IMG/VR virus record: IMGVR_UViG_3300025849_002481
Coordinates: 11,721 to 75,720 of that record
Direction: 5' to 3' (one strand)
From: a virus
DNA length: 64,000 bases
The notes below the pieces were generated by a model. That model was not told the DNA's origin. It saw only the letters and a list, made by a program, of their open reading frames with translations, and searched no databases. Positions within the stretch are counted from its first letter, which is position 1, and the number at the start of each line of letters is the position of its first letter. Of this stretch, positions 10,826 to 64,000 are shown in pieces. The position numbers and the translations under genes are program-made.

Positions 10826-12136
10826 ATGGCACTTACTTCGAATGGATTTTTAGATAATTTAGTAAATGGGATATTAGGTCCCAAAGGCAACATGGCCGAC
10901 TGGTCACATGCTAGTAGACTTTATGTTGACGGTAATTTAAAACTTGCTCCTAAGAGCAAATTTTTATATCATACATATTTTCAATTAGACAAAGTTGCAA
11001 CATCTGTACTTCCTGAATTAGAAAATCATAAATTAGAAATAGGCATGCTCGTTAAAAATGCAGAGTTGCCAAAATATACATCTGTTGTTGAAACACGTAA
11101 CAAATATAACAGAAAGAAAAATGTACAAACAGGAATACAATACGAGCCTATTACAATTACATTCCATGATGATAATTATGGTGTAACTACAGCATTATTA
11201 GAAGCATATTATAGATATTATTTTGCTGACGGCGGTTATGGACGTTTACCTGGAGCTTTTAATAAAGCTGGCACAGGCGATAACACATACAAAGGCTCAG
11301 GGCGTAACCAATTTAAATATGGTTTAGATAATAATATTACTGTACCGTTTTTTAAAAACATACAAATTAGTCAACTAGCTAAACGTACATACACTACATA
11401 TACACTAGTAAATCCTATTATTACAAACTGGCAACACGATCAAGTTGATAATAGTGATGCTTCAACGCCTATGCAAAACACAATAACTGTTGCATACGAA
11501 GCTGTACATTATTCAAGAGGCCCGAGTGATAATAACAATCCTGATCAACCAGGACCAGTAGGATTTGGATCAACTGAACATTATGATAAACAGCCATCAC
11601 CTATATCTTTATTAGGTGGCGGCACGTTAGGTCTAGACGGAGTATTTGGAGCCGGCACAGACTTATACGATTACATATCTAAAGGCACAGGATTTAAAAG
11701 TCCTTTAGAAGCAGGACTGGCAGCGTTCCAGTTAATAAGAGGACTTGAAAACTTAACATCAGACGGTGTAAGAGAAGAAGTAAATAATTTGTTAAACGAC
11801 ACATTGGGTGATATAGGAAATGTAAATGTTAGTGGAGTAGCTAACACAGTGATACCTAAGAATAACGGACAAGGTGGAAGTAATGATACAACACAAGCTT
11901 CAAGTATAACTACAATAGGGCCTTCAACAACAGCTAATCCAATTGGCTCAACTACAAAACAATTACTTCAAGATAATCCACTTGCACTTGAAGATGCAGC
12001 AAAAAGTGTATATAAGAGTGATTACTTAACTTCCGGAGGCACTGGCGGTGTGAACGGAATTAATACATCTTGGGATTCATTACCCGAAGGAACTAAAGAA
12101 CTTTACAGAGAAAAGGCATTAGATATAACATTATGA
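10826..12136 (+). CDS. Tail tube-like / baseplate-tube junction virion protein
   Basis: ELPK...YNRK...YEPITITFHDD tube-like fold motifs; located in the tail module. Confidence 0.5.
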   Translation: MALTSNGFLDNLVNGILGPKGNMADWSHASRLYVDGNLKLAPKSKFLYHTYFQLDKVATSVLPELENHKLEIGMLVKNAELPKYTSVVETRNKYNRKKNVQTGIQYEPITITFHDDNYGVTTALLEAYYRYYFADGGYGRLPGAFNKAGTGDNTYKGSGRNQFKYGLDNNITVPFFKNIQISQLAKRTYTTYTLVNPIITNWQHDQVDNSDASTPMQNTITVAYEAVHYSRGPSDNNNPDQPGPVGFGSTEHYDKQPSPISLLGGGTLGLDGVFGAGTDLYDYISKGTGFKSPLEAGLAAFQLIRGLENLTSDGVREEVNNLLNDTLGDIGNVNVSGVANTVIPKNNGQGGSNDTTQASSITTIGPSTTANPIGSTTKQLLQDNPLALEDAAKSVYKSDYLTSGGTGGVNGINTSWDSLPEGTKELYREKALDITL

Positions 12137-53985: not shown

Positions 53986-54256
53986 ACCACCAAGTAAAAT
54001 ATATGCTATACAAGCATATTCAAAAACCAACAACAAGCTCAAGCAGGAGTTTGATCAAGACGCACTGATTGCTCCCTACAAGCATACTACAGCTGAACGA
54101 GAAGCCAAATTGAAGGCAGAGAGTCTAGCACGTAGATTAAATAACATAAAGCACCAAGGTGCAACAGATTGGGTAGCACGTTATCCTTTGCAAGACTATC
54201 GTCCAAGTGGCATAGTAAGAGCAAGTCAGATACGCAATCCAAGAACAACGAGATAG
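53975..54256 (+). CDS. Hypothetical protein, paralog of 50145..50420
   Basis: Start MSNRPP at 53975 after TATAAATA and AGGAG. Confidence 0.65.
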   Translation: MSNRPPSKIYAIQAYSKTNNKLKQEFDQDALIAPYKHTTAEREAKLKAESLARRLNNIKHQGATDWVARYPLQDYRPSGIVRASQIRNPRTTR

Positions 54257-54265
54257 GAGCGGCAC

Positions 54266-54610
54266 ATGCCACTAAGCGTAACAGTACACGGAATAGCCAC
54301 AGTCGCTGGACCCAATCAAAACGGAAGATGGGCAACAGCAGATATAACCTCAACAGACGGAACCGACAATGTGATATACACAGTACCTGCTGATGTTGAC
54401 TATGTTATCGCAGCCATAAGCATACTCAATAGAAGTGATGAAGCAGCAACCAATGTAAACGTTGCTATTGCTAATGCAGATGTTCCCCTAGACGTTGAGT
54501 TTATTGAATGGAAAACATCAATGGTACCACGTGGCGTACTAGAGCGCACACAGTTGTTGCTGAACCCCGGACAAAGAATCATAGTCAGAGTAGGCGACTA
54601 CACCCCGTAG
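54266..54610 (+). CDS. Hypothetical beta-rich virion-type protein
   Basis: YTVP...NR...IE......P.GVLERT.L pattern. Confidence 0.6.
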   Translation: MPLSVTVHGIATVAGPNQNGRWATADITSTDGTDNVIYTVPADVDYVIAAISILNRSDEAATNVNVAIANADVPLDVEFIEWKTSMVPRGVLERTQLLLNPGQRIIVRVGDYTP

Positions 54611-54847
54611 TCCTAGAAGCGCGAAGCGCCTGCGCCAGAAAGCCGCTCGCGGAAAGCCCTAAGCTAGAAGAGCTACGAAGTAGATTTAAGCAAAAATTTC
54701 AGTCTTAAACTACGCACTTAACTTACTACAGTATCATTGCACATATGCACACTATATAAAAAGTTTTCCAACAACCATAGCGACACGCCTATTGCAACAC
54801 TGTGCAATACCCCGTACGTACTGATTAACAAAAAGATGAGTCTTATT

Positions 54848-55060
54848 CTACAATCGAGTGACTGTGTACCTAGAGTTTCCTGCGAGTTTTAACTGAGCTA
54901 GTGTACAGTGAGCAGCTGATTCAAACTCTAGTATGTTGTATGCACTTTGACTAGCTTCTATCTTAGAGTCTACAAACAGTTCTATGACTAGTGCATGTAC
55001 TAGCGCATCAATTGCTTGCTTGTTGGTAACTGGTTCAAACTGTAGTAGTAACTTGTGCAT
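54848..55060 (-). CDS. Hypothetical protein
   Basis: ATG at 55060 (MHKLLL) lies 5 nt after a TAAATA box, like the other late genes. Confidence 0.5.
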   Translation of the reverse strand: MHKLLLQFEPVTNKQAIDALVHALVIELFVDSKIEASQSAYNILEFESAAHCTLAQLKLAGNSRYTVTRL

Positions 55061-55455
55061 ACAGTTATTTAACGTGTGCGTAGAGTAGCGCACAGCTAAG
55101 AGGTTCTTGTTTTACACACATAAAGAGACAAGCTCTTACACACTCGCTGGTCGCTTGTGTGTGTTAGCTTCGCCAAAAGGGTATTTGTAGAGTAAAAAAT
55201 TGTGCGCAAAAAAATTTGGTGGAGTACTTACACTAGTAGTGAGGTTGCAGTGTACAGCGCCAAATGGGGTCTGCAGTGTAAAAAGTTGCGCTACGAAAAT
55301 TTTAGGTGAAGTACTTACAGAAGTTGGGTGGTGATTTTGCCTCTGTATGTTTTTAAAAAGCGGTCATTAAGCACAGCTAAGTTGTTGTTTTAATTATATA
55401 TTTACACCCCCCCACCCCCTCGAGAAATTATTTTTTTAGAAAAATATTTTTTTAT

Positions 55456-55495
55456 TTTGAAAAGAAAAAAGGAATAGTATCTCTACTACTCCCTT
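55456..55495 (-). terminator. Rho-independent terminator ending the early-gene array
   Basis: Minus strand AAGGGAGTAGTA-GAGA-TACTATTCCTT followed by TTTTCTTTT. Confidence 0.75.
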
Positions 55496-55587
55496 CTCCC
55501 CTAGCGTTGTGCTAGTCTCCTTGTTGTCTAGGATTGCCTGCTACCCTACGTAACTCAGCTACCCCCTAGTGGGTATAACTACTACCC

Positions 55588-55953
55588 CTAGTCAGCTCTT
55601 GACCCTGCGTATGCTGTAAAGCCTGCGGCCTTGTAGACCTTAGCGGCTGCTTCAGCACCTGCTTCTTTGGTGCTCATGCACTGTGTGCCTAGTCCACTTG
55701 GGTTCCATATTGAGTAAGCACCTGTGTAGTCCTTCTCAAAGCCTGCTTGCTTCATGCGCTTGCCCAGCTTGGTGTTGCCTTTGATGCCATAGATGTTAAC
55801 CCAAGCAAAGCCACAGTAGGCATGCTCGCCATGTGTGTCCAAGTGTGCCTGTGCTGCATCACGTGCATGTTGTAGAGCAGCTTCCCTAATCATTACTAGG
55901 TCTGCTACAGTGTAATCGTTAAGTTCAACAGTTGATGTGTTAATAGTTGTCAT
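55588..55953 (-). CDS. Early hypothetical protein
   Basis: CGFAWV...SRAD motif; own promoter and GAGGGC leader. Confidence 0.75.
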   Translation of the reverse strand: MTTINTSTVELNDYTVADLVMIREAALQHARDAAQAHLDTHGEHAYCGFAWVNIYGIKGNTKLGKRMKQAGFEKDYTGAYSIWNPSGLGTQCMSTKEAGAEAAAKVYKAAGFTAYAGSRAD

Positions 55954-56034
55954 AGTGTTTAGCCCTCTGCTTTGTTTAATTTACTCTTACAGTGTACACT
56001 CTATTATGTACACTGTCAACCTTTTTCTTACCAA

Positions 56035-56304
56035 TTAGTAGATGCACTCTGGAGTGTCTAGCCAGTTGTTCAAACAGTATGCTTCTAGCTCTCGTTGTAC
56101 TTGTGCAAGGAACTTGGTCTTCTTGCGCACATATGCCATAGGAGCTTCACCATCACAGTGTAGGTTCTCTGGGCTTAGTTCTGATGCAATAGCATTCATC
56201 AAGTCATTTGCATCTGTTTGTGCTAGTGGGAAGTTCATAGCGCCCTGGCCGAAGATTGCGTTCCACTTGTTCTTTTGTTCTACGTATGCTTCTAGGTTTT
56301 TCAT
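56035..56304 (-). CDS. Early hypothetical protein
   Basis: Start MKNLEAY at 56304 (the promoter lies inside the longer called ORF); LSPENLHCDGE motif. Confidence 0.75.
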   Translation of the reverse strand: MKNLEAYVEQKNKWNAIFGQGAMNFPLAQTDANDLMNAIASELSPENLHCDGEAPMAYVRKKTKFLAQVQRELEAYCLNNWLDTPECIY

Positions 56305-56410
56305 TGTGTGCCCTTGCTTTGTTAATATACTTACTATTATAAGGTCACTTTGGGTGTGTGTCAACCTTTTATTTGCCAAAATCGTAAATTAATTTCCACC
56401 GGCTGTAGTC

Positions 56411-56537
56411 AAAAGAAAGCCCAGGAGTGTTTGGACGAGGGCACATCCTACTCCTGGGCGCATGTGTAAGCAAGCTTCTTAGAGGGCTGAGGGGCGCCTG
56501 CTGTACACTTTTAAGCACTGTGTGGTCGCTGAGGGCA
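56411..56537 (-). ncRNA. Putative structured 3'-UTR / small RNA with GCCCUC loops, ending in a terminator
   Basis: Two hairpins whose G-U pairs work only on the minus strand; loops GCCCCUCAGCCCUC and UGCCCU; U-tract at 56411-56418. Confidence 0.55.
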
Positions 56538-57536
56538 TTAGCGATTCTGCATCACAGTGTTTTCTGCCATAGCTTCCCAACGTTGTGGAAATGCTACAGC
56601 AAGCTCGGCAACTTTAAGTACTGTTCTCAATGACAGCTCACGTAGTTGCTTCTTATTAATATCAACGAAATCCATTACGTCTTCTTTGACATCATCTGAA
56701 AGTTTGTAGCTATCAAGCATGCCGTCTTGTACAACTTGCTTGATGCGCAACATCTTGTCCTTCTCACTCTTGATTGTGAGATCCATGTAGTGACAACGAC
56801 TCTCTAGTGCTTCCAAGTGCGAACGCAACTTCTTGCTCTTTACATCACGGAAGTCTAGGTTGGTAATAAAGATTGCACTACCTTTGAACTCGAAGCTGTC
56901 CGGCACACCTTCATTACGCAACTTGAAGCTGTCTGTGTTCCAGTGGATTGTACGCTTCTTCTTAGAGTCTAGTGCAGCTTTTAAAATATTAAGTGCAAGA
57001 GGCTCTTCGAACACAGCATCACAGTCATCGAACACAAGTACATTGTCTTGGTCTTTGAAGTTGAACAGTTTACAGTAGAGTCCGATTGGGCTCATAGCAC
57101 CTTTGACAACTTCATACTTCTGTCCACCACCTAGTGCGGCAACAGTGTCGTATCTGTCAAGTACTTCTTCTACACCATGTGACTTACCAACTCCTGGAGG
57201 ACCTGATACGATCATAGCACTTACAACACCCTTCTTGACAGCTTTGGTCATATCTTTCAACATGTCAAAGCGTTCACGGATGCGTTCTACAATCTCTTCA
57301 TCTGTTTCGGTTACAGTGTTTACTTTGGCTCCGGCAGCTTCATAAGCTGATGTGCCATCACACATGATCTTAATGTTACGCTCTGGAAAGCCTGGAACGG
57401 CTCTGCCATCTACTGTTACGTAGCCACCCTTGGCGCCTACTTTAAATTCTTGTACAAGTGGAAACACCATACCAGCTAGGTCGACGTCATTGCCTCTAAT
57501 CTTGTATGTGCCTTCTTTGATTCTAATGTTTGTCAT
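56538..57536 (-). CDS. AAA+/P-loop ATPase
   Basis: GPPGVGKS, VFDDCD, LKAALD, FITN, ALESRC. Confidence 0.85.
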   Translation of the reverse strand: MTNIRIKEGTYKIRGNDVDLAGMVFPLVQEFKVGAKGGYVTVDGRAVPGFPERNIKIMCDGTSAYEAAGAKVNTVTETDEEIVERIRERFDMLKDMTKAVKKGVVSAMIVSGPPGVGKSHGVEEVLDRYDTVAALGGGQKYEVVKGAMSPIGLYCKLFNFKDQDNVLVFDDCDAVFEEPLALNILKAALDSKKKRTIHWNTDSFKLRNEGVPDSFEFKGSAIFITNLDFRDVKSKKLRSHLEALESRCHYMDLTIKSEKDKMLRIKQVVQDGMLDSYKLSDDVKEDVMDFVDINKKQLRELSLRTVLKVAELAVAFPQRWEAMAENTVMQNR

Positions 57537-57588
57537 ATTGTTTGCCCTTCAGTTATTTAATTAATGCCTAATTATTAAACTTAGTATA

Positions 57589-57864
57589 CTACGACATCTG
57601 TGGAATGTCAATCTCTTTTTTAACAAACCGAGCAATTAAATTCATGTCCTCGGCTGTAAAGTCCTTTTCTAATTTAGGACCAAACGCATTGCCCAACTTG
57701 GTTAGCATAGAACCTACGTGGCTCATATCGTTCAAGAGTTTGAAGTCTTCGTCCTTCATGCCCTTACAGTTTGCGTATTCGCTCATGTCGCACATCTTGC
57801 GGCCAATCGATGCCAGTTGTTTGTGCTGTGCGCTTACTTCATAAATTGATGTGTTGTTTTTCAT
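57589..57864 (-). CDS. Early hypothetical protein
   Basis: Own promoter and GAGGGCA leader. Confidence 0.75.
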   Translation of the reverse strand: MKNNTSIYEVSAQHKQLASIGRKMCDMSEYANCKGMKDEDFKLLNDMSHVGSMLTKLGNAFGPKLEKDFTAEDMNLIARFVKKEIDIPQMS

Positions 57865-57940
57865 AGTGCCCTCATTTCCTAATTGTTATATACATTATAC
57901 GATCATTAAGAGTGTTTGTCAACCCCTAATTTGCCAAAAA

Positions 57941-58141
57941 TTAATCTAAATCGCAAACCCAACCGCCGGCTGTACCTTCGTACTCTGCAACCAATGTGCC
58001 ACCTAGTCCGAACGGTGAAGCAATCTCTGCAACTGGTTTGCCGGTGTGTTCACATATGCCCTGACCTAGCAGCTCAACCTTCTTAAAGCCTTCGTCTGTG
58101 CCAAAGCCACGGTTTACAAAGTGTACGTTCAGTTCTTGCAT
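57941..58141 (-). CDS. Early hypothetical protein
   Basis: Own promoter and GAGGGCA leader. Confidence 0.75.
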   Translation of the reverse strand: MQELNVHFVNRGFGTDEGFKKVELLGQGICEHTGKPVAEIASPFGLGGTLVAEYEGTAGGWVCDLD

Positions 58142-58208
58142 GTGTTGCCCTCTTGCTTAACTTATATATACACTATAGCACAGGTGCGCTATAGTGTCAA
58201 CCTTTTTT

Positions 58209-58550
58209 TTACATACTCCAATATGATTCTGATGATGGGCTCATATAGCCCGGAGTGTTCACAGTCTCTGTGATTGGCTTTTCTTTAGCTTCGTCCATGA
58301 TGCTATATACAGTCCGACTCTTCTCTATGTTCTTGTGGAAGTATGCCGCTTCTGCTATACCATAACGGAACATAGGATCGTTCACACTGTCTAGCAAGTC
58401 TGCTCTATAACGTTTGCTCATGCGTGTGAGTGCCGCTTTGGCCGCAGGCATTGTTTTATAGCTCTGGCGGTGATCAGGACGAACTACACCGTCCCGCTTG
58501 TTGAGCTTGCCCATGATGTAAGTTGATGATTTTTCGTAAATGTAAAACAT
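58209..58550 (-). CDS. Early hypothetical protein
   Basis: AAKAALTR and NTP...SPSSESYWSM motifs; own promoter. Confidence 0.75.
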   Translation of the reverse strand: MFYIYEKSSTYIMGKLNKRDGVVRPDHRQSYKTMPAAKAALTRMSKRYRADLLDSVNDPMFRYGIAEAAYFHKNIEKSRTVYSIMDEAKEKPITETVNTPGYMSPSSESYWSM

Positions 58551-58621
58551 TGATTGCCCTCTTTGTTTTTAAGTTTGTATATACACTATAGCACATAAAT
58601 GCTATAGTGTCAACCTTTTTT

Positions 58622-59014
58622 TTAACTTTTATACATACGCAAATCTAAATCCGCTCCGTCGTAATCGTGTGCATCTACTTGCTTGTAGTAAAAATCTAGT
58701 ATGTCGTGCTTTTTACAGTAATCAAAAAAGTGTTCGCTTATTCCTTCGTTAATACAATCATCATCGTATCTGTAATCTATTGCAGTTGCAAAAGCAGTAG
58801 CAAGCGTTTTATCTTTGCGTGTAAAATAGTTTTCTAATAGTTGTGTAGTTTGTACACACAATTCTTCTGTTGCACTAATCCAATCGTACACATTTTCCAT
58901 ACCGTGTTCTTCGCAAGCAAAATCTTCCGCACTTACAAGTTCAACTTTATAATTCATAGTGTGTGTTAAAAAATTACATAAATGTTTTAATTCACGTGTA
59001 GTAATGTTTTGCAT
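58622..59014 (-). CDS. Early hypothetical protein
   Basis: Start MQNITT at 59014 after GAGGGCA. Confidence 0.75.
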   Translation of the reverse strand: MQNITTRELKHLCNFLTHTMNYKVELVSAEDFACEEHGMENVYDWISATEELCVQTTQLLENYFTRKDKTLATAFATAIDYRYDDDCINEGISEHFFDYCKKHDILDFYYKQVDAHDYDGADLDLRMYKS

Positions 59015-59096
59015 ATTGCCCTCATGCTTTGTTATTATTATAGTTACACTATAGCACAAGTGCGCTATAGTGTCAACCTTTTTTTTACCAAAAAGT

Positions 59097-59369
59097 TTAA
59101 CTTTCGTATTTTACACCTACTAAACGCAAGTAGCGTCCTCCAAATGTAGTATGCACTTTATCACATCCTACTAGCAACTTTAACCATTTACAGTCACCTT
59201 CTGTAAAACGTTCTCCTACAATTCCAAAACACAAGTTGCGTTTGTCTGCAACTTTTGCATTGTCTTTCCAAACAACGTTAGTCCAACTGTTCCAAAAACT
59301 AGCATCCTTTTCTGCTAGTACTGTTGCAACAAGTTTACGTGCTTGTAGTGTGTTTAGTTTATTTTGCAT
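59097..59369 (-). CDS. Early hypothetical protein
   Basis: GAGGGC leader, TTGCAT-17-TATATT promoter. Confidence 0.7.
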   Translation of the reverse strand: MQNKLNTLQARKLVATVLAEKDASFWNSWTNVVWKDNAKVADKRNLCFGIVGERFTEGDCKWLKLLVGCDKVHTTFGGRYLRLVGVKYES

Positions 59370-59477
59370 TTAAAGCCCTCCAAATGCTGTTACGTTATAA
59401 TTTAATATAGCACCGGTTTGCGCATAATGCAACCATTTTTTTAGTTTGTTACGTTACGTTATTTGGATAAAAAGAGG

Positions 59478-59507
59478 TTGACAACCCCGGCTGTTGTGTG
59501 TTATAAT
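59478..59507 (+). promoter_or_regulatory. Plus-strand sigma70 promoter facing the tRNA cluster
   Basis: TTGACA-18-TATAAT with an extended -10 TG. Confidence 0.65.
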
Positions 59508-59597
59508 GGATTGATGCCCGAAGGTTCTGGACCGGCTGTACCTACTTCGGTTCGGAAGGGTCTTACTGTGAGGGCGGCATGCCCTTCCGAACGTATT

Positions 59598-59684
59598 TGG
59601 TGCTCGCACCCGGACTCGAACCGGGACGCCGTAATCAGCGACAGATTTTAAGTCTGTTGTGTCTACCTATTCCACCATGCGAGC
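59598..59684 (-). tRNA. tRNA-Leu(UAA)
   Basis: Cloverleaf; anticodon arm ACAGA-CTTAAAA-TCTGT, long variable arm, GGTTCGAGTCC, encoded CCA. Confidence 0.95.
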
Positions 59685-59689
59685 GGTGT

Positions 59690-59766
59690 TGGCCTGCCCT
59701 GCAGGATTCGAACCTGCGACCCACAGCTTAGAAGGCTGTTGCTCTATCCAGCTGAGCTAAGGGCAG
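59690..59766 (-). tRNA. tRNA-Arg(UCU)
   Basis: Anticodon arm ACAGC-CTTCTAA-GCTGT, GGTTCGAATCC, CCA. Confidence 0.95.
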
Positions 59767-59768
59767 TC

Positions 59769-59845
59769 TGGTACGCCTGGAGGGACTTGAACCCCCAACC
59801 TGCGGATTATGAGTCCGACGCTCTAACCAATTGAGCTACAGGCGC
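59769..59845 (-). tRNA. tRNA with CAU anticodon, probably Ile2 (lysidine) rather than Met
   Basis: CGGA-CTCATAA-TCCG arm, CCA. Acceptor stem has C4-G69 and C5-G68 (TilS determinants in E. coli); no initiator GGG/CCC stem. Confidence 0.85.
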
Positions 59846-59974
59846 AAAACTTTATTTCTAGTTGGGTGTTAAGATGATCCTCTTCTATCTTACAAAATGA
59901 TTTCCAATGAGCCCCACCGCTCTCAATTGGATCGTCACCGGCTGTCACGGTCACGCCCTAGGTTGTAGAGTTGC

Positions 59975-60304
59975 CTACGCTGTGATTATGTCCTCGGACT
60001 CAGCGGTAATCGGCTGTACCTCTACTTTCGTTGTTTCGCTCTGCTCCGGCTGTGCCTTCACATTTCTTACAACAAACTCTGCAATCGCACTCTGTTGAGC
60101 TTCGCTTTGGAAGTTCGGGTGTGCCATTAATACTTTACAGACATCTGCTTTTGACATTTTTTCGCCAAGTTCGATCAACTCAATGTCGTCGTGTCCGTTC
60201 TTAGCTAAGATCTTGAACCTACCTACATAGTCATTCGCGAACCTTACCTTGGTCACTCCGTTGTGTGTTGATGTTCCTGCTACTTCAAAAGTTTTAGTTG
60301 TCAT
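59975..60304 (-). CDS. Early hypothetical protein
   Basis: VAGTS...G..KVRFAND motif; own promoter. Confidence 0.75.
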   Translation of the reverse strand: MTTKTFEVAGTSTHNGVTKVRFANDYVGRFKILAKNGHDDIELIELGEKMSKADVCKVLMAHPNFQSEAQQSAIAEFVVRNVKAQPEQSETTKVEVQPITAESEDIITA

Positions 60305-60374
60305 ATTTGCCTCTCATTGTTTTAGTTTATATTATACATTATAGCACCAATTGCCACAATGGTCAACCTTTTTT

Positions 60375-60842
60375 TTAACTATTTTGGCTAGCCGCAATCC
60401 GTGCTTCCATAGCCGCTAGTTCGATTGGAACCATAACGTCTAAGAAGTTAAAGATTGGATAACCGTTTTCGTCTTTGGCACCGTGATCGTTAACTAACCA
60501 CTCTTTGCCATTCCAAAGGTAGGCATACTCTTCCATGTCATCAATCCAACTTGGAATGTCTGCATACTCTTGAATGCTCAGCTGCTCGCCTCGGTCTCGG
60601 CTGTAAAACAATGTCCAATCGTCTCGTTGTGTCGAACGATCGTCAAAGTCTTGTGGATCACCAATCTGCTCACCTAGTGAACTGATTGAACCTAGTGCAA
60701 CCAACGCTTCGATCTTATCGATGTCCGTGTAGTTCTCCAACAGGATCTTTCCGTTGTTTGCGACATAGCCGTCCCAGTGACAGTATACTGAAACAATCTT
60801 GCCTTCTTTGGTCTTCATTGCGATGTTTGAACGTGTTGCCAT
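60375..60842 (-). CDS. Early hypothetical protein
   Basis: MATRS.I...SVYCHWDGY and EEYAYL motifs; own promoter. Confidence 0.75.
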   Translation of the reverse strand: MATRSNIAMKTKEGKIVSVYCHWDGYVANNGKILLENYTDIDKIEALVALGSISSLGEQIGDPQDFDDRSTQRDDWTLFYSRDRGEQLSIQEYADIPSWIDDMEEYAYLWNGKEWLVNDHGAKDENGYPIFNFLDVMVPIELAAMEARIAASQNS

Positions 60843-60912
60843 TTTGTTTGCCCTCTAGCGTTTGTTTAACTTACTCTTATAATATAGCACCAAAGTGCTC
60901 AGTTGTCAACCC

Positions 60913-61116
60913 CTAATTTACCGAAACTTGATATCCATATTGCCAATGGCCGTTGTCTAGATCAAACACACAACGATCCTTGTCATCTACATAGACCTTA
61001 TCCATGTCTATGCCATACTTGTCGCCGGCTGTAGCACATAGCTCAATGCCTTTTACCTTAGCTTCACCAAACCGGCTGTTGACCTTAGTTCCTATTTTAA
61101 TATATGTTCTGCTCAT
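60913..61116 (-). CDS. Early hypothetical protein
   Basis: Own promoter and GAGGGCA leader; LDNGHW.YG.Q. Confidence 0.75.
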   Translation of the reverse strand: MSRTYIKIGTKVNSRFGEAKVKGIELCATAGDKYGIDMDKVYVDDKDRCVFDLDNGHWQYGYQVSVN

Positions 61117-61177
61117 AGTGCCCTCATTTCCTAATTGTTATATACAGTATAGCTTCAAGTGATCGAGATGTCAACCT

Positions 61178-61756
61178 TTATTTTGCCAATTCTCGTTCTT
61201 TTTCTTCTTCCATTTCCTCTTCGATCCATTCACGCCTATTCTCAATAAGCTCAAACTCGTCGTCAAGTTTCTGGAATAGCTCTGGAGTGTCTTCAAGAGC
61301 ACAAGTGCCTTTGACTACCGCTTCGCACCATTCGCTCAGGCCTTCCATATATTGATCATCGCCATCTGTGTAGATACCTGCAAAGTCCATACCACCTTCT
61401 TCATAGGTTGCCTCAATCGAACAGTTGTCCATATCGTCTAACCAGGTGTTGTATGCTTCAATGGGAGGTGCCCACGCACTATCAAACCAACCTGTGATAT
61501 GACTTGTGCCATCTTTGTTGTCCACATACTCTAGACCTTCGTCTGAGATGTCCCACTTGGTCCCCCAGTTGCTAACATGCCAGTCATACCAGTTCGGACC
61601 ATCACTAGGAGCGGTTGTGCCTTCTAGTTCTTTGGGCATCGGAACCATTGCATCAAGTAGAGCAAAGTCCTCTCCATCATGTGCATCATCCCACAGTTGC
61701 TTGATTGTGTCTGTTGGACCACTAATTGTGATTGAGTTCGAACACCAATTAGGCAT
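61178..61756 (-). CDS. DUF1281/YubB-like ferredoxin-fold protein
   Basis: MPNWCSN, WY.W...NWGTKWD, FDSAWAPP, YEE.G..FAG. Confidence 0.75.
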   Translation of the reverse strand: MPNWCSNSITISGPTDTIKQLWDDAHDGEDFALLDAMVPMPKELEGTTAPSDGPNWYDWHVSNWGTKWDISDEGLEYVDNKDGTSHITGWFDSAWAPPIEAYNTWLDDMDNCSIEATYEEGGMDFAGIYTDGDDQYMEGLSEWCEAVVKGTCALEDTPELFQKLDDEFELIENRREWIEEEMEEEKERELAK

Positions 61757-61925
61757 AGTCAGTCTCCTCTAAAAAACGTGGTGAAAGTTCATTGCAATCA
61801 AGCATATCTTCGACATCATCTGTGCTCATATACTTGAGTGCCATAGTCAGCATATCTTCGGCTGTGACGAAACCGTCGTCGATCAGCTCTAGTGCTGTGT
61901 CTCTTGCGTTAGTTGGTCTTTTCAT
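61749..61925 (-). CDS. 58-aa early protein (not in ORF track)
   Basis: MKRPTNARDTALELIDDG...FLEETDYA; own promoter, GAGGGCA leader, overlaps the next start. Confidence 0.7.
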   Translation of the reverse strand: MKRPTNARDTALELIDDGFVTAEDMLTMALKYMSTDDVEDMLDCNELSPRFLEETDYA

Positions 61926-61990
61926 ATTGCCCTCATTTCCTAATTGTTATATACAGTATAGCGTCAATTGATCCAGTTGTCAACCTCTTT

Positions 61991-62206
61991 TTAACCAATT
62001 TCCTCTACTTCGCGACCTTGTGCAAAGTCCATCAAGTCTGCGGCCAATGCCGCGGCCTGTGCTCGTGTCAATTGCAAGTGATCAAAGAACTCTGTGCCTA
62101 CAGGTCGCTCTTTACGCATTGTAACCTGGACGCTGGTGCCTTGACCGCCGTTTGCGAAACGGGTTAATGAAACGCCTTGTGCGTGTGATTTCAAATCTGT
62201 TGACAT
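61991..62206 (-). CDS. Early hypothetical protein
   Basis: Own promoter, GAGGAG SD. Confidence 0.75.
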   Translation of the reverse strand: MSTDLKSHAQGVSLTRFANGGQGTSVQVTMRKERPVGTEFFDHLQLTRAQAAALAADLMDFAQGREVEEIG

Positions 62207-62279
62207 CTGTGTCTCCTCTTTGCCCTAATTGTTATATACAGTATAGCACCTAGATGCTACACTGTCAACCTCTTTTTGC

Positions 62280-62621
62280 TCAAAAGTCCTGTGGATAACC
62301 TTTGGAACGCATCTCCGGCTGTAGGGGTGATACCACGATGACCTGCTCTTTGAGGAAGTCACGATAGTCCTCATCCTCCGGCAGTTGTTCGATCCACTCT
62401 TGCTCAGTGAGGAACTCTGTGGGGAACTCCTTGCAGCTGATGTTGTTCTCCATAGTGATCGCAGCTACGAACGCGGCCGCATCCTGCACTCGATCCAAAC
62501 CCTGGACCAAGTATTCTGAACCGCCTTTGAACTTCCAATAGGCGTTGCCTGATGAAAACTTACCGTCCTCACAGTGTGCGCCATAGTTCTCTAAAAATTG
62601 TGTTTTGATTACGAAATTCAT
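62280..62621 (-). CDS. Early hypothetical protein
   Basis: TQ..ENYGAH...YWKFKGG motif; own promoter. Confidence 0.75.
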   Translation of the reverse strand: MNFVIKTQFLENYGAHCEDGKFSSGNAYWKFKGGSEYLVQGLDRVQDAAAFVAAITMENNISCKEFPTEFLTEQEWIEQLPEDEDYRDFLKEQVIVVSPLQPEMRSKGYPQDF

Positions 62622-62683
62622 ATTGCCCTCTTTTCCCTAACTGTTATATACAGTATACCTTCAAAACCGGCTGCTGTCAACCT

Positions 62684-62911
62684 CTAATTTACCAAAAAGT
62701 CCTCGTCAACGATGAAACTGTATACGGCCTCCCTAACGGCTGTATCGGTTGCTTCTTCGTAACCGTCGGCTGTAGCCAGCTTCTCCAATTCACGAACGGT
62801 CCATGCCCAAGCACTTTCAGCACCATCTTCGGCTGTTAACTGTAGACCGGCTGTGGCGATCCGTGTGACCAATTCATTGCCCTCGGCTGTGAACATTGCG
62901 AAATCTTTCAT
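62684..62911 (-). CDS. Early hypothetical protein (first gene of the array)
   Basis: MFT.EGN...EATDTAVRE motif; own promoter. Confidence 0.75.
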   Translation of the reverse strand: MKDFAMFTAEGNELVTRIATAGLQLTAEDGAESAWAWTVRELEKLATADGYEEATDTAVREAVYSFIVDEDFLVN

Positions 62912-63018
62912 ATCGTGCCCTCCTAATCTCTAACTGTTATATACAGTATAGCCTCAAACCTCGGCTGTGTCAACCTTTATTTTACCAAAATGTGAAAAAA
63001 GTTTCCTCCGGCTGTAGA

Positions 63019-63046
63019 ATTTAACATAATAAACTTTATACGCAAA
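63019..63046 (-). other. dif-like XerC/XerD recombination site 1
   Basis: TTTGCGTATAA-AGTTTA-TTATGTTAAAT; XerD arm 11/11 and XerC arm 8/11 versus E. coli dif. Confidence 0.85.
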
Positions 63047-63092
63047 ACCTTCGGCTGTAGGGGCTAAGTCATTGAAATCATTGATCAAAAGA

Positions 63093-63120
63093 ATTTAACA
63101 TAATAAACCTTATACGCACA
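63093..63120 (-). other. dif-like XerC/XerD recombination site 2
   Basis: TGTGCGTATAA-GGTTTA-TTATGTTAAAT; XerD arm 11/11 and XerC arm 9/11. Confidence 0.85.
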
Positions 63121-63401
63121 CCAAGTCCTGCCCACCACCGGCTGTTATTATACAGTCTCTCTCCCCTAGTGTCAACCGTTCTTTTGCACCGATCACAAAA
63201 GAATCTGAATCCTCAATAGAATCAACAGCTTACAGTTCGAATGAGCAAAAGAACAGTTCTCTTCCTCGCTTATACCAAAAACTTCAATGATATCAATAGC
63301 TTAGGATTTACAGCCGGGGCCCCATGTAACCTCTTGAAAACAAAGAGAAAATCAAAAACCCAATACAAACAATGACTTAGAAGACCACCTTGATTCGCTG
63401 C

Positions 63402-63625
63402 AGTGAGAGAGTGAAAAATTCAAAATGACCCCTGATCTGCTGCAGTGAAAGGTTCAAAGTGAGCATAACAGTGAGTTCGAAAGTGAAAGTGACAGTGAGA
63501 ACCATAGTGACTCGTACAGTGAGAACCATGAACCCCTCTTAGAGCTATACAGTGAGTAAGGAGTCTCTTGTTATAGTGTAGTGAGTATAGTGTACAGTGG
63601 GGTACAGTGAGGGGCCGAAGGCCCC
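63402..63625 (+). repeat. AGTGA iteron-like repeats ending in a GC hairpin
   Basis: 13 AGTGA copies, six in exact 12-bp phase (63458-63518); GGGGCC-GAA-GGCCCC at 63611-63625. Confidence 0.75.
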
Positions 63626-64000
63626 AGAATCTCCAATGATTTCAATGGTTTACACCATTAAGTTAAGGTACTGAACCATGCTTTAAGGGTGTTTTAAGGG
63701 TGGCGGAATAGGTGTACAATACTGGTTGGTGTACATTTTTCGGCACATGCCCTACAGTTTACCCACGATCTATAGCCAAAAAAATTTTTCTTGAGCACGG
63801 TGACGAGAGGCATAGTTCAAATACTTTTCATAGTTGTTTTCATAGTTGTATAACCTACCCAATCACCATTCTATATAGTGTAGTTTCAACGACTTCTATG
63901 CTAGACTTACTCTGTGTATAGCCGAGATCTCTACTAGGTTCTAGAGGTCAAACACCCAGGTGACCGCAGCGGGGCCTAGGGTCTACGCAGCTAACCACAC

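Follow-up and report, generated by a model that had tools for sequence, protein, structure and literature searches.

Initiation is blocked by RNAIII and RsaE through unpaired C-rich loop motifs that bind Shine-Dalgarno (SD) sequences (PMC2790875). S. aureus RNAIII and RsaE/RoxS and Listeria LhrC (PMC2790875, PMC4132741) carry several unpaired C-rich hairpin-loop motifs followed by a terminator, and their loops are complementary to the SDs of many targets; the phage RNA described below shares both features. Their outcome is blocked 30S binding, whereas the function of the phage RNA is inferred. A second point of comparison is the early shut-off of T4 (PMC1702504, PMC3014915), in which, as proposed here, an early-specific flavor of ribosome-binding site permits early translation to be switched off post-transcriptionally. 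The third is the PeSL cassette of T4-type phages (PMC2839356, PMC4122927), which resembles the present cassettes in its repeated AT-rich tract, near-consensus sigma70 promoter, SD, and start codon before small variable genes.

The window is a stretch of 64,000 nucleotides of the IMG/VR virus record IMGVR_UViG_3300025849_002481 (positions 11,721 to 75,720). The best reading of the phage family to which it belongs is that of large uncultured aquatic myoviruses whose early genes are driven by the host RNA polymerase. In the early array of this marine phage, a sigma70-type promoter and an AU-rich leader precede nearly every gene individually, as listed below.

55588..63175, minus strand: early-gene array of 16 small genes and 3 tRNA genes (from ORFs, promoter scan, and tRNAs)
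62909..62973, minus strand: cassette of ATG 62911, with TTGACA-N17-TATACT and GAGGGCA at 62916-62922
62619..62680, minus strand: cassette of ATG 62621, with promoter and GAGGGCA at 62624-62630
62204..62268, minus strand: cassette of ATG 62206, with promoter and TAGGGCA at 62221-62227, 14 nt upstream; the SD proper is GAGGAG at 62213-62218
61923..61983, minus strand: cassette of ATG 61925, with promoter and GAGGGCA at 61928-61934; one of three near-identical leaders
61754..61769, minus strand: start of the gene with ATG 61756, without its own promoter or the motif; overlaps the upstream gene; SD GAGGAG at 61764-61769
61114..61174, minus strand: cassette of ATG 61116, with promoter and GAGGGCA at 61119-61125; one of three near-identical leaders
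60840..60909, minus strand: cassette of ATG 60842, with promoter and GAGGGCA at 60849-60855
60302..60366, minus strand: cassette of ATG 60304, with promoter and the variant GAGAGGCA at 60308-60315
59367..59432, minus strand: cassette of ATG 59369, with TTGCAT-N17-TATATT (read from the sequence) and GAGGGCT at 59374-59380
59012..59076, minus strand: cassette of ATG 59014, with palindromic promoter and GAGGGCA at 59017-59023
58548..58613, minus strand: cassette of ATG 58550, with palindromic promoter and GAGGGCA at 58555-58561
58139..58200, minus strand: cassette of ATG 58141, with palindromic promoter and GAGGGCA at 58146-58152
57862..57922, minus strand: cassette of ATG 57864, with promoter and GAGGGCA at 57867-57873; one of three near-identical leaders
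57534..57611, minus strand: cassette of the AAA-ATPase gene, ATG 57536, with promoter and AAGGGCA at 57543-57549
56302..56364, minus strand: cassette of ATG 56304, with promoter and AAGGGCA at 56309-56315
55951..56019, minus strand: cassette of ATG 55953, with palindromic promoter and GAGGGCT at 55961-55967

A promoter of the TTGACA-N17-TATAMT type belongs to 15 of the 16 array genes, and the promoter scan returned 15 to 16 minus-strand sites in the array with 10 to 12 of 12 matches. Four of these promoters contain an internal inverted repeat of 10 to 11 bp. Many of the array proteins have no known function. Relatives carry homologues of these 16 genes in differing orders and subsets, with the strand always shared. 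This strongly rearranged, same-strand gene order fits the suggestion of the initial annotation that a duplicated promoter-RBS cassette may promote gene shuffling, as does the published PeSL concept (PMC2839356, PMC4122927).

The initial annotation had placed AGGGC[A/T] upstream of the ATG in 14 of the 16 minus-strand array genes. That count is correct, with all copies within 22 nt of the ATG, and the reported variant at 60304 and the three near-identical leaders (genes 61925, 61116, and 57864, minus-strand sequence) were likewise found as described. The motif lies at SD distance in 13 array genes, with a gap of 2 to 7 nt between the 7-mer and the ATG; GGAGGGC is read in only two array leaders. 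In the window, AGGGCW is not more abundant than expected by chance (41 copies versus 34.5 ± 6.0 in shuffles), and it is its placement that stands out. Among genes of at least 50 amino acids in the array, 12 of 14 have the motif at positions -20 to -3, versus 1 of 78 other genes of the contig (Fisher 3e-12); an equal frequency before non-early genes, which would have refuted the idea of an early-specific leader, is thus not seen. Outside the array, the genes have AGGAG, GGAG, or AAGGA (34 of the 78) or weak SDs. Of the 22 plus-strand GAGGGCW copies in a 275-kb relative, 18 lie within one 10-kb bin, the one containing the early promoter array.

The GAGG/AGGG core, 4 to 9 nt from the ATG, qualifies as a canonical SD element, and the motif is predicted to be unpaired at 0.67 in the leader. 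Pairing with the anti-SD CACCUCCUU yields about -6.5 to -6.9 kcal/mol on average; the GC[A/U] extension contributes nothing to it, in agreement with the earlier statement that the extension cannot pair with the anti-SD. The motif is family-wide, being present in 303 of 387 distinct promoter-led leaders from 60 related viral contigs. Across the 387 leaders (61 loci), G(-1) is conserved at 87%, C(+4) at 90%, and A/T(+5) at 97%, while the flanks are merely AU-rich, and the position is tied to the ATG (spacer of 4 to 9 nt) while the distance from the -10 box varies from 10 to 40 nt. At the level of sequence, these two properties argue for selection on the extension beyond cassette copying.

The putative partner of the leaders is encoded within the same array, behind its AAA-ATPase gene.

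56538..57536, minus strand: AAA-ATPase early gene (phrog_1250, homologue of T4 nrdC.10), the stop codon of which falls within hairpin 1 of the RNA module
56411..56546, minus strand: RNA module behind the AAA gene, in its 3'UTR, with three hairpins and a U-tract (fold z = -2.9)
56531-56537 (UGCCCUC), 56489-56495 (GCCCCUC), 56482-56488 (AGCCCUC), and 56437-56443 (UGCCCUC), minus strand: anti-motif loops of the module
56419-56459, minus strand: terminator hairpin of the module, with the U-tract at 56411-56418

A module of 2 to 5 hairpins and a terminator follows the AAA stop codon directly in essentially all relatives (about 60), and nearly all 60 carry 2 to 5 copies of [U/A/C]GCCCUC there, the complement of GAGGGC[A/U/G]. 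In 48 distinct sequences, the loop motif is predicted to be unpaired at 0.83, versus 0.39 for the rest of the RNA. In hairpin 1, 100% of cells pair, compensatory changes occur in 4 of 5 pairs, and the covariation of 0.97, versus 0.34 after shuffling, was reached by 0 of 500 shuffles. In the terminal hairpin, 79% pair, 4 of 5 pairs are compensatory, and the covariation is 0.57 versus 0.24; the last C of the loop motif sits in the closing pair of terminal hairpins. Apart from tRNAs, a comparison of 54000-64000 with Rfam 15 gave nothing at E up to 1, and the module has no Rfam family. Two features of a C-rich-loop anti-SD RNA are present, a loop motif predicted to be unpaired and complementarity to the SD region of its proposed targets. 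The module is thus one that, by inference as to function, works like the C-rich-loop class of small RNAs without being a member of a described family.

Leaders and loops are complementary over 6 to 8 nt, with exact complementarity over 7 to 8 nt. Early TIRs average -15.7 kcal/mol against the loop oligonucleotides, while other genes average -6.7 kcal/mol (Mann-Whitney 4e-9) and the canonical anti-SD reaches only -6.9 kcal/mol. Variants match as well: loops UGCCCUC and AGCCCUC fit leaders GAGGGCA and GAGGGCU, and a UGCCCUU loop is carried by loci in which AAGGGCA leaders dominate. In a sister clade, the leaders read AGGAG-C(100%)-G(79%)-A-A (68 of 90 leaders anchored) and the loops read GAUUCGCUCCCGG, again unpaired (0.87 versus 0.39). 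There the leader GGAGCGAA pairs with the loop UUCGCUCC, and therefore both partners have changed together. Cognate leader-loop pairs give -11.3 and -10.5 kcal/mol, versus -5.6 and -5.7 kcal/mol for noncognate pairs. Type A leaders (consensus GAGGGCA) occur at 57 loci, 53 of which have type A loops and 0 type B loops; the 45 loci with type B leaders include 35 with type B loops and 0 with type A loops. Type A forms a single clade on the AAA tree, and at clade level the co-variation counts as one or two evolutionary events, which means that the per-locus statistics are not independent. In a deeper group, there are hints of a third putative pair, GGAGCUA with UAGCUCC. Taken on sequence evidence alone, the predicted pairing between leaders and RNA loops is strongly supported.

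The initial annotation had interpreted the motif as an operator for a translational regulator, either an RNA or a RegA/CsrA-like protein. The RNA option gains support from loops that are exact complements of the leader motif, from a module with covarying stems kept at one place in about 60 relatives, and from the joint change in the sister clade, although repression itself is inferred. We consider it likely that one C-rich-loop RNA encoded in a 3'UTR pairs with a private extended SD and shuts off early translation; repression, timing, and expression are inferred in this proposal, as is the wider reading that the whole early gene set is probably switched off by one phage RNA. The GAGG core of GAGGGC[A/U] would recruit ordinary 30S subunits, and the additional G-C-[A/U] would be retained because it makes the leader complementary over 6 to 8 nt to the apical loops [U/A]GCCCUC. 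The RNA, encoded right after the AAA-ATPase stop codon and ended by a predicted intrinsic terminator, would accumulate as a structured, presumably stable 3'UTR-derived molecule (with no host or chaperone such as Hfq identified). Its loops would pair with accessible SD regions of early mRNAs and out-compete the weaker SD/anti-SD contact, so that formation of the initiation complex would be blocked and decay perhaps triggered; host mRNAs and the AGGAG-type middle and late mRNAs would escape this effect. The RNA would thus be a functional counterpart of the RegB/RegA shut-off of T4. Its production and stability, pairing in vivo, and the repressive effect and its timing are all inferred. For its expression, marine metatranscriptomes offer only assembled contigs, without strand, ends, or level. 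Because the RNA is cotranscribed with an early gene, delayed action needs differential stability or processing, neither of which has been shown. Several observations sit uneasily with shut-off: an RNA has 2 to 5 loops and a genome 15 to 30 leaders, the pairing is short (6 to 8 nt), and the motif is missing from the early gene 61756, in part from 60304, and from the SD position of 62206.

The pairing may be real and its effect other than repression, such as stabilization or protection of early mRNAs, circularization of the AAA mRNA in cis, or titration of the RNA from another (host) target by the leaders acting as a sponge. The complementarity and co-variation are the same under this explanation, which could also account for an RNA produced alongside its supposed targets and for leaders outnumbering loops. 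We regard it as unlikely, since the pairing covers the SD itself, 2 to 7 nt from the ATG, which blocks initiation in all characterized C-rich-loop sRNAs (PMC2790875), and no second conserved complementary target was found in the phage sequences examined.

Somewhat less likely still is that the motif serves a protein, as the operator of a repressor resembling RegA or CsrA or as the site at which an endoribonuclease of the RegB kind cleaves early-type SDs, with the RNA unrelated or secondary. The exact complements in conserved hairpin loops, and their change together with the leaders, would then remain unexplained. The logic would be identical to that of T4, whose RegB cleaves the GGAG of early SDs and whose RegA is a translational repressor (PMC1702504, PMC3014915), and the array proteins without known function leave room for such a factor. 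However, the RegA/CsrA-like option found no support: RegB (PF10715) and RegA (PF01818) had no Pfam match in the contig or in 4 to 5 large relatives (67 to 77% complete, or 44 to 77% for the set of five), in searches without a positive control, and CsrA (PF02599) had none in five records, while control genomes did respond. In addition, the RegB site GGAG is missing from the type A consensus GAGGGCA. The binding site of CsrA/RsmA has a GGA core, usually as A(N)GGA in a loop, and GGA is not contained in AGGGC.

It is very improbable that the motif is only a strong SD with its spacer context, copied with the duplicated promoter-leader cassette and devoid of regulatory meaning. Three leaders are indeed near-identical, the cassettes are repeated and recombining, and GAGG at 5 to 10 nt is a normal SD, but conservation of the extension equals that of the core over 387 distinct leaders that otherwise differ, the sister clade substitutes a different extension, and the complement of the extension is conserved in the loops. 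Finally, a DNA-level site in both orientations (for a transcription factor, or a modification or restriction target) or an unusual host anti-SD can hardly be entertained: GAGGGCA and TGCCCTC are one site on duplex DNA and the host is unknown, but among the leader copies it is the spacing to the ATG, not to the promoter, that is fixed, the inverse copies bear an RNA signature in that they occupy hairpin loops whose stems covary, the same core takes different extensions in two clades, and the non-early genes use AGGAG, GGAG, or AAGGA, which implies a canonical host anti-SD.

Preferring the RNA-mediated shut-off, we see about even chances that this family of aquatic jumbo myoviruses possesses a private SD/anti-SD-like code, in which one 3'UTR-derived multiloop RNA acts on 15 to 30 early mRNAs and globally times the early-to-middle switch at the post-transcriptional level. 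Both partners of this code would have been rewritten at least once, perhaps twice (GAGGGCA/UGCCCUC, GGAGCGAA/UUCGCUCC, and possibly GGAGCUA/UAGCUCC).

Compared with known systems, the array meets the criteria of PeSL cassettes in its repeated near-consensus sigma70 promoter-SD-start units (387 distinct ones counted among relatives) and modular gene shuffling; in both systems, gene order changes from one relative to another. The cassettes differ in that most lack a separate upstream stem-loop, with a palindrome inside the promoter in some; the terminator of the RNA module is the sole clear hairpin preceding an array promoter. In the passages of PMC4122927 consulted, the SD at the 3' end of the PeSL element is called only a Shine-Dalgarno sequence, and neither an extension nor a matching RNA is mentioned. 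The effectors of T4, RegB and RegA, are proteins, whereas the proposed effector here is an RNA; no homologue of either was detected here, and the type A motif lacks GGAG.

Repeated anti-SD-like loop motifs aimed at the ribosome-binding sites of many mRNAs, as in the phage RNA, also characterize the alphaproteobacterial sRNAs AbcR1/2 and NfeR1, which, unlike the phage RNA, are host-encoded and directed at host transporter mRNAs. To our knowledge, those systems have no private SD extension. From RNAIII, RsaE, and LhrC, with which it has no sequence or Rfam relationship, the phage RNA differs in being phage-encoded, in the 3'UTR of an early gene, and in its longer loop motif ([U/A]GCCCUC or UUCGCUCC versus UCCC). 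While those RNAs act on ordinary host SDs, the proposed targets of the phage RNA are the private SD extensions of its own early regulon.

The source contig (75.7 kb; CheckV completeness, 21%), of which the window covers bases 11721 to 75720, comes from IMG/VR; helicases, a terminase, and a tail sheath of 1126 aa are among the proteins that it encodes. Among cultured phages, the jumbo myoviruses Pseudomonas phage PA5oct and Agrobacterium phage Atu_ph07 are the nearest, with protein identities of 42% to 50%, and relatives in IMG/VR reach 275 kb (estimated completeness, 77%). Gene content and both groups of relatives indicate that the contig is part of the genome of a large aquatic myovirus that has not been cultured and whose host is unknown. 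The analysis found neither a cultured model nor a known host.

The minus strand at 55.6-63.2 kb contains an early array of 16 small genes, named here by the positions of their ATGs, and three tRNA genes. Of the 16 genes, 15 have an individual TTGACA-N17-TATAMT promoter, in many cases with an upstream A-tract and a TG extension, and downstream of each promoter lies an AU-rich leader of about 25 to 45 nt. In 13 genes, GAGGGCA, GAGGGCT, or AAGGGCA occupies the Shine-Dalgarno (SD) position, with its 3' end 2 to 7 nt from the ATG. The following genes depart from this form:
Gene 62206, minus strand: SD is GAGGAG, with TAGGGCA farther upstream
Gene 60304, minus strand: leader variant GAGAGGCA
Gene 61756, minus strand: translationally coupled, SD is GAGGAG

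The initial annotation had placed the motif shortly before the array ATGs, and this was recovered at the SD position in the 13 genes and farther upstream of 62206; the three near-identical leaders that it described are also present. The total number of AGGGCW copies in the whole window is unremarkable (41 versus 34.5 expected). With a single uniform start-picking rule for all genes, AGGGCW was found at -20 to -3 in 12 of 14 array genes versus 1 of 78 other genes (Fisher, 3e-12), so that the observation that would have refuted early specificity, a motif equally common before middle and late genes, was not made. The non-array genes chiefly use AGGAG, GGAG, or AAGGA or have weak SDs. The leader motif is real, nonrandom, and specific to the early array.

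One array gene (ATG 57536) encodes a 332-aa AAA-ATPase (phrog_1250), a homologue of T4 nrdC.10, with which 60 viral loci were retrieved at 67% to 87% identity. Strict sigma70-like promoters in these loci number 335 on the sense strand versus 44 on the other strand, and 255 of the 335 have AGGGC[AT] and an ATG, in that order, downstream. After deduplication, 303 of 387 leaders have AGGGC[AT] no more than 22 nt from the start. With the leaders aligned on AGGG, G stands before it in 87%, C comes next in 90%, and A or T follows the C position in 97%, while the flanking bases are merely A-rich. The distance from AGGG to the ATG is tight (4 to 9 nt) and that from the -10 box to the motif is variable (10 to 40 nt), which ties the motif to translation initiation and not to the promoter. 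Since the leaders differ outside the motif, copying of a single cassette cannot explain its conservation. In the 275-kb relative, a single 10-kb bin, that of the promoter array, contains 18 of the 22 GAGGGCW copies on the plus strand, and the motif precedes 14 of 30 array genes versus 9 of 320 genes elsewhere. In the PA5oct group, the closest cultured phages (AAA-ATPase identity, 42% to 49%), no per-gene cassettes, shared extended SD, or RNA module of the kind described below was found.

A search of the sense strand of the relatives with the reverse complement of the leader motif showed that [G/C]CCCTC copies are mostly clustered immediately 3' of the AAA-ATPase stop codon in essentially every relative. 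The intergenic element there is modular, with 2 to 5 hairpins, the last being GC-rich and followed by a U-tract, and each hairpin carries [U/A/C]GCCCUC in its loop. No Rfam family was found for this RNA module, whose parts in the window are as follows:
56546-56411, minus strand: RNA module
Hairpin 1: includes the AAA-ATPase stop codon, loop AAUGCCCUC
Hairpin 2: large loop bearing GCCCCUC and AGCCCUC
Terminator hairpin: apical loop UGCCCU(C)

The fold of the window module is more stable than those of shuffled sequences (z = -2.9). Across 48 distinct sequences, the mean unpaired probability of GCCCUC was 0.83 versus 0.39 elsewhere in the element, despite the G+C-richness of the motif. Because hairpin number varies, a whole-module consensus from MAFFT and RNAalifold was poor, and covariation was taken from gap-free, motif-anchored alignments of single hairpins. 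In hairpin 1, 60 of 60 cells pair, four of five pairs show compensatory changes, and the covariation score is 0.97 versus 0.34 after shuffling (0/500); slid controls pair in 23% to 45%. The terminal hairpin has 79% of its cells paired, with compensatory changes in four of five pairs and a score of 0.57 versus 0.24.

All seven positions of the leader GAGGGCA form Watson-Crick pairs with the loop UGCCCUC. AGCCCUC loops match the less common leader form GAGGGCU, and the loop UGCCCUU is present in loci with mostly AAGGGCA leaders. Pairing extends further in some window leaders, as with AGAGGGCU and AGCCCUCU and with UAGAGGGC and GCCCUCUA, and the motif-less gene 61756 has UUAGAGG, complementary to CCUCUAA. 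Duplex energies were computed with short loop oligonucleotides; the duplexes that RNAduplex predicted for the full-length RNA were unrealistically long and interrupted by loops and were discarded. The loop oligonucleotides averaged -15.7 kcal/mol with the 16 early initiation regions versus -6.7 kcal/mol with 42 other genes (Mann-Whitney, 4e-9), and the early leaders reached only -6.9 kcal/mol with the canonical anti-SD. Structure prediction leaves the leader motif mostly single stranded (0.67).

Distant loci with AAA-ATPase identities of 48% to 66% were added by profile-based search. In a sister clade of 16 loci (clade 2), the AAA-ATPase gene is likewise followed by hairpins and a terminator, with GAUUCGCUCCCGG in the loops, and in the promoter-led leaders AGGAG is extended by C (100%), G (79%), A, and A (68 of 90 anchored). 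Here GGAGCGAA stands opposite UUCGCUCC, the leader extension again cannot be paired by the 16S tail, and the loops are predicted to be open (0.87 versus 0.39).

Motif counts on the sense strand in clade 1 (60 loci) and clade 2 (16 loci)
GAGGGCA: clade 1, 332; clade 2, 7
TGCCCTC: clade 1, 113; clade 2, 3
GGAGCGAA: clade 1, 4; clade 2, 50
TTCGCTCC: clade 1, 2; clade 2, 28

Cognate leader-loop duplexes had energies of -11.3 and -10.5 kcal/mol versus -5.6 and -5.7 kcal/mol for noncognate ones, and the anti-SD duplexes of the two leader sets were nearly equal (-6.5 and -6.6 kcal/mol). Loci were typed by counts of 7/8-mers, since 5-mers and a loose hairpin test were too noisy. Loci with leaders of clade 1 type (type A) had type A loops in 53 of 57 cases and type B loops in 0 of 57; those with leaders of the sister-clade type (type B) had type B loops in 35 of 45 and type A loops in 0 of 45. 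A FastTree phylogeny of the AAA-ATPase placed type A in a single clade (51 rows; local support, 97) and type B in its sister group and on deeper branches, which indicates one switch of type, so that a per-locus P value overstates independence. The real evidence is that many leaders and several loops changed jointly. The deeper-branching loci L146, L151, L160, and L162 have AGGAGCUA leaders and UAGCUCCU beside or in a hairpin after the AAA-ATPase gene; these thin data, with few leaders per locus, hint at a third matched pair, GGAGCUA with UAGCUCC. In L093 (about 7900) and L108 (about 4400), of a GC-richer type B subclade, an ORF directly follows the AAA-ATPase gene and the UUCGCUCC hairpin and terminator lie after a later gene, so the module is not strictly bound to the AAA-ATPase 3' untranslated region (UTR). 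In the window, the region 3' of the last array gene (55400-55590, minus strand) has several UAGGG(G) repeats ahead of a long A/T tract and a G-run (GGGGGTGGGGGGG); a comparable stretch, rich in G and in A/T, follows the module of the clade 2 locus L133.

The initial annotation had proposed a translational operator read by either an RNA or a RegA/CsrA-like protein. Searches for RegB, RegA, and CsrA in the contig and in four or five large, incomplete relatives gave no match, those for RegB and RegA without a positive control. CsrA binding requires GGA, which AGGGC lacks. An Hfq-like protein cofactor cannot be excluded. An unusual host anti-SD could also be invoked for the extension, but the non-array genes of this phage use canonical SDs and the same core carries different extensions in the two clades; as the host is unknown, this explanation is rejected on indirect grounds only. 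A DNA-level site is rejected because the leader copies keep their position relative to the ATG, and loops of covarying RNA hairpins contain the inverse copies. The RNA alternative is supported, in that a conserved complementary phage RNA accounts for the non-SD extension, with repression and timing remaining inferences.

The initial annotation also suggested that the cassettes promote gene shuffling. A comparison of gene content agrees with this, as the relatives carry homologues of the 16 genes in many different subsets and arrangements, without exception on the same strand, and the AAA-ATPase gene and RNA module remain together through the rearrangements. Different window cassettes were found joined in metatranscriptome and metagenome contigs, which is only a hint because the flanks are short. 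The array units, each built of an A-tract, a consensus promoter, a leader, an SD, and an ATG, are counterparts of the T4-type phage PeSL cassettes, to which a role in modular shuffling is ascribed (PMC2839356, PMC4122927).

Several other elements occur in and around the array. Four early promoters contain a perfect 10- to 11-bp inverted repeat from the -35 box to just beyond the -10 box (ACACTATAGC ... GCTATAGTGT type), which a dimeric repressor could use as its operator or which could form a hairpin in a transcript of the other strand:
55991-56019: inverted-repeat promoter
58172-58200: inverted-repeat promoter
58585-58613: inverted-repeat promoter
59048-59076: inverted-repeat promoter
The array is headed by a sigma70-type promoter with a perfect 12/12 match and without an ORF behind it (63147-63175, minus strand), which is followed at about 63016-63117 by two copies of a direct repeat of about 28 nt (GCGTATAARGTTTATTATGTTAAATTCT), and these may specify a leader or noncoding RNA. 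Upstream of the first array promoter (63406-63611, minus strand), six to seven (C)TCACTG(T/C) copies spaced by 24 to 55 nt come after a GC-rich hairpin, GGGGCC-TTCG-GGCCCC; they may be a protein-binding array or a noncoding transcript, and CACAGUG in the linker of the hairpin RNA is complementary to them. The heptamer ACAGCCG, in most cases with G or A as the next base, has 22 copies on the array sense strand (56406-63145, minus strand), between genes and in several reading frames of coding sequence; the rest of the window has two more on that strand and three on the other. Among relatives, only L027 has such a strand bias (10:1), and the 275-kb relative does not. A Chi-like site or an RNA motif is conceivable, the function of the heptamer being unknown. 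The three tRNA genes lie at 59601-59845, minus strand (Rfam tRNA, 59 to 72 bits), and tRNAs also stand behind array promoters in relatives (e.g., L009, L013, and L014). In the relative G001 (L070-L083), a small cluster of four GAGGGCW copies and three sigma70-like promoters at 170-180 kb (minus strand), far from the main array and on the opposite strand, may be a second early transcription unit.

The extended SD is early specific, a 3' UTR multihairpin element presents its exact complement in open loops, and the two have co-evolved. The module may be released, or act, as a stable RNA, an inference that rests on its structure and on the terminator at its end. The loops of this RNA would pair with early-mRNA SD regions more tightly than the 16S tail can, and the accumulated RNA would block initiation, causing a delayed shut-off of early proteins, although the direction of the effect is open. 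Middle and late mRNAs with AGGAG-type SDs, as well as host mRNAs, would be spared. The RNA would be cotranscribed with its proposed targets, and its 2 to 5 loops would face 15 to 30 leaders. Array pieces with 99% to 100% identity were found in marine metatranscriptome assemblies, as contigs only, in which coverage gaps are uninformative. The phage or a very close strain is present in those marine samples; transcription, strand, RNA ends, and level are not shown by them.

Nothing relevant was found in the literature on phage small RNAs (sRNAs) targeting early SDs, and to our knowledge control of a temporal gene class of this kind was previously known in phages only for proteins (T4 RegB and RegA). 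If the proposal is true, one small RNA and a short ribosome-binding-site address tag control a whole temporal gene class of a virus. This would be a natural case of orthogonal translation control, in which the tag keeps host ribosome recruitment and adds a selective off-switch, and the joint recoding of tag and reader by evolution would directly demonstrate specificity. It would also account for a conserved noncoding element of hundreds of marine and freshwater viral contigs and imply that PeSL-like cassettes can carry regulatory addresses while shuffling genes. A portable, programmable regulon switch, simple enough for Escherichia coli reporters, would be conceivable.

The proposed system resembles T4 RegB and RegA in its early shut-off logic (PMC1702504, PMC3014915), but its proposed effector is an RNA. 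In its proposed mechanism, it resembles the C-rich-loop sRNAs RNAIII and RsaE (PMC2790875). With repression and timing inferred, the RNA is classed as a phage-encoded anti-SD sRNA of the C-rich-loop kind, addressed to a private SD tag of the phage's own early regulon.
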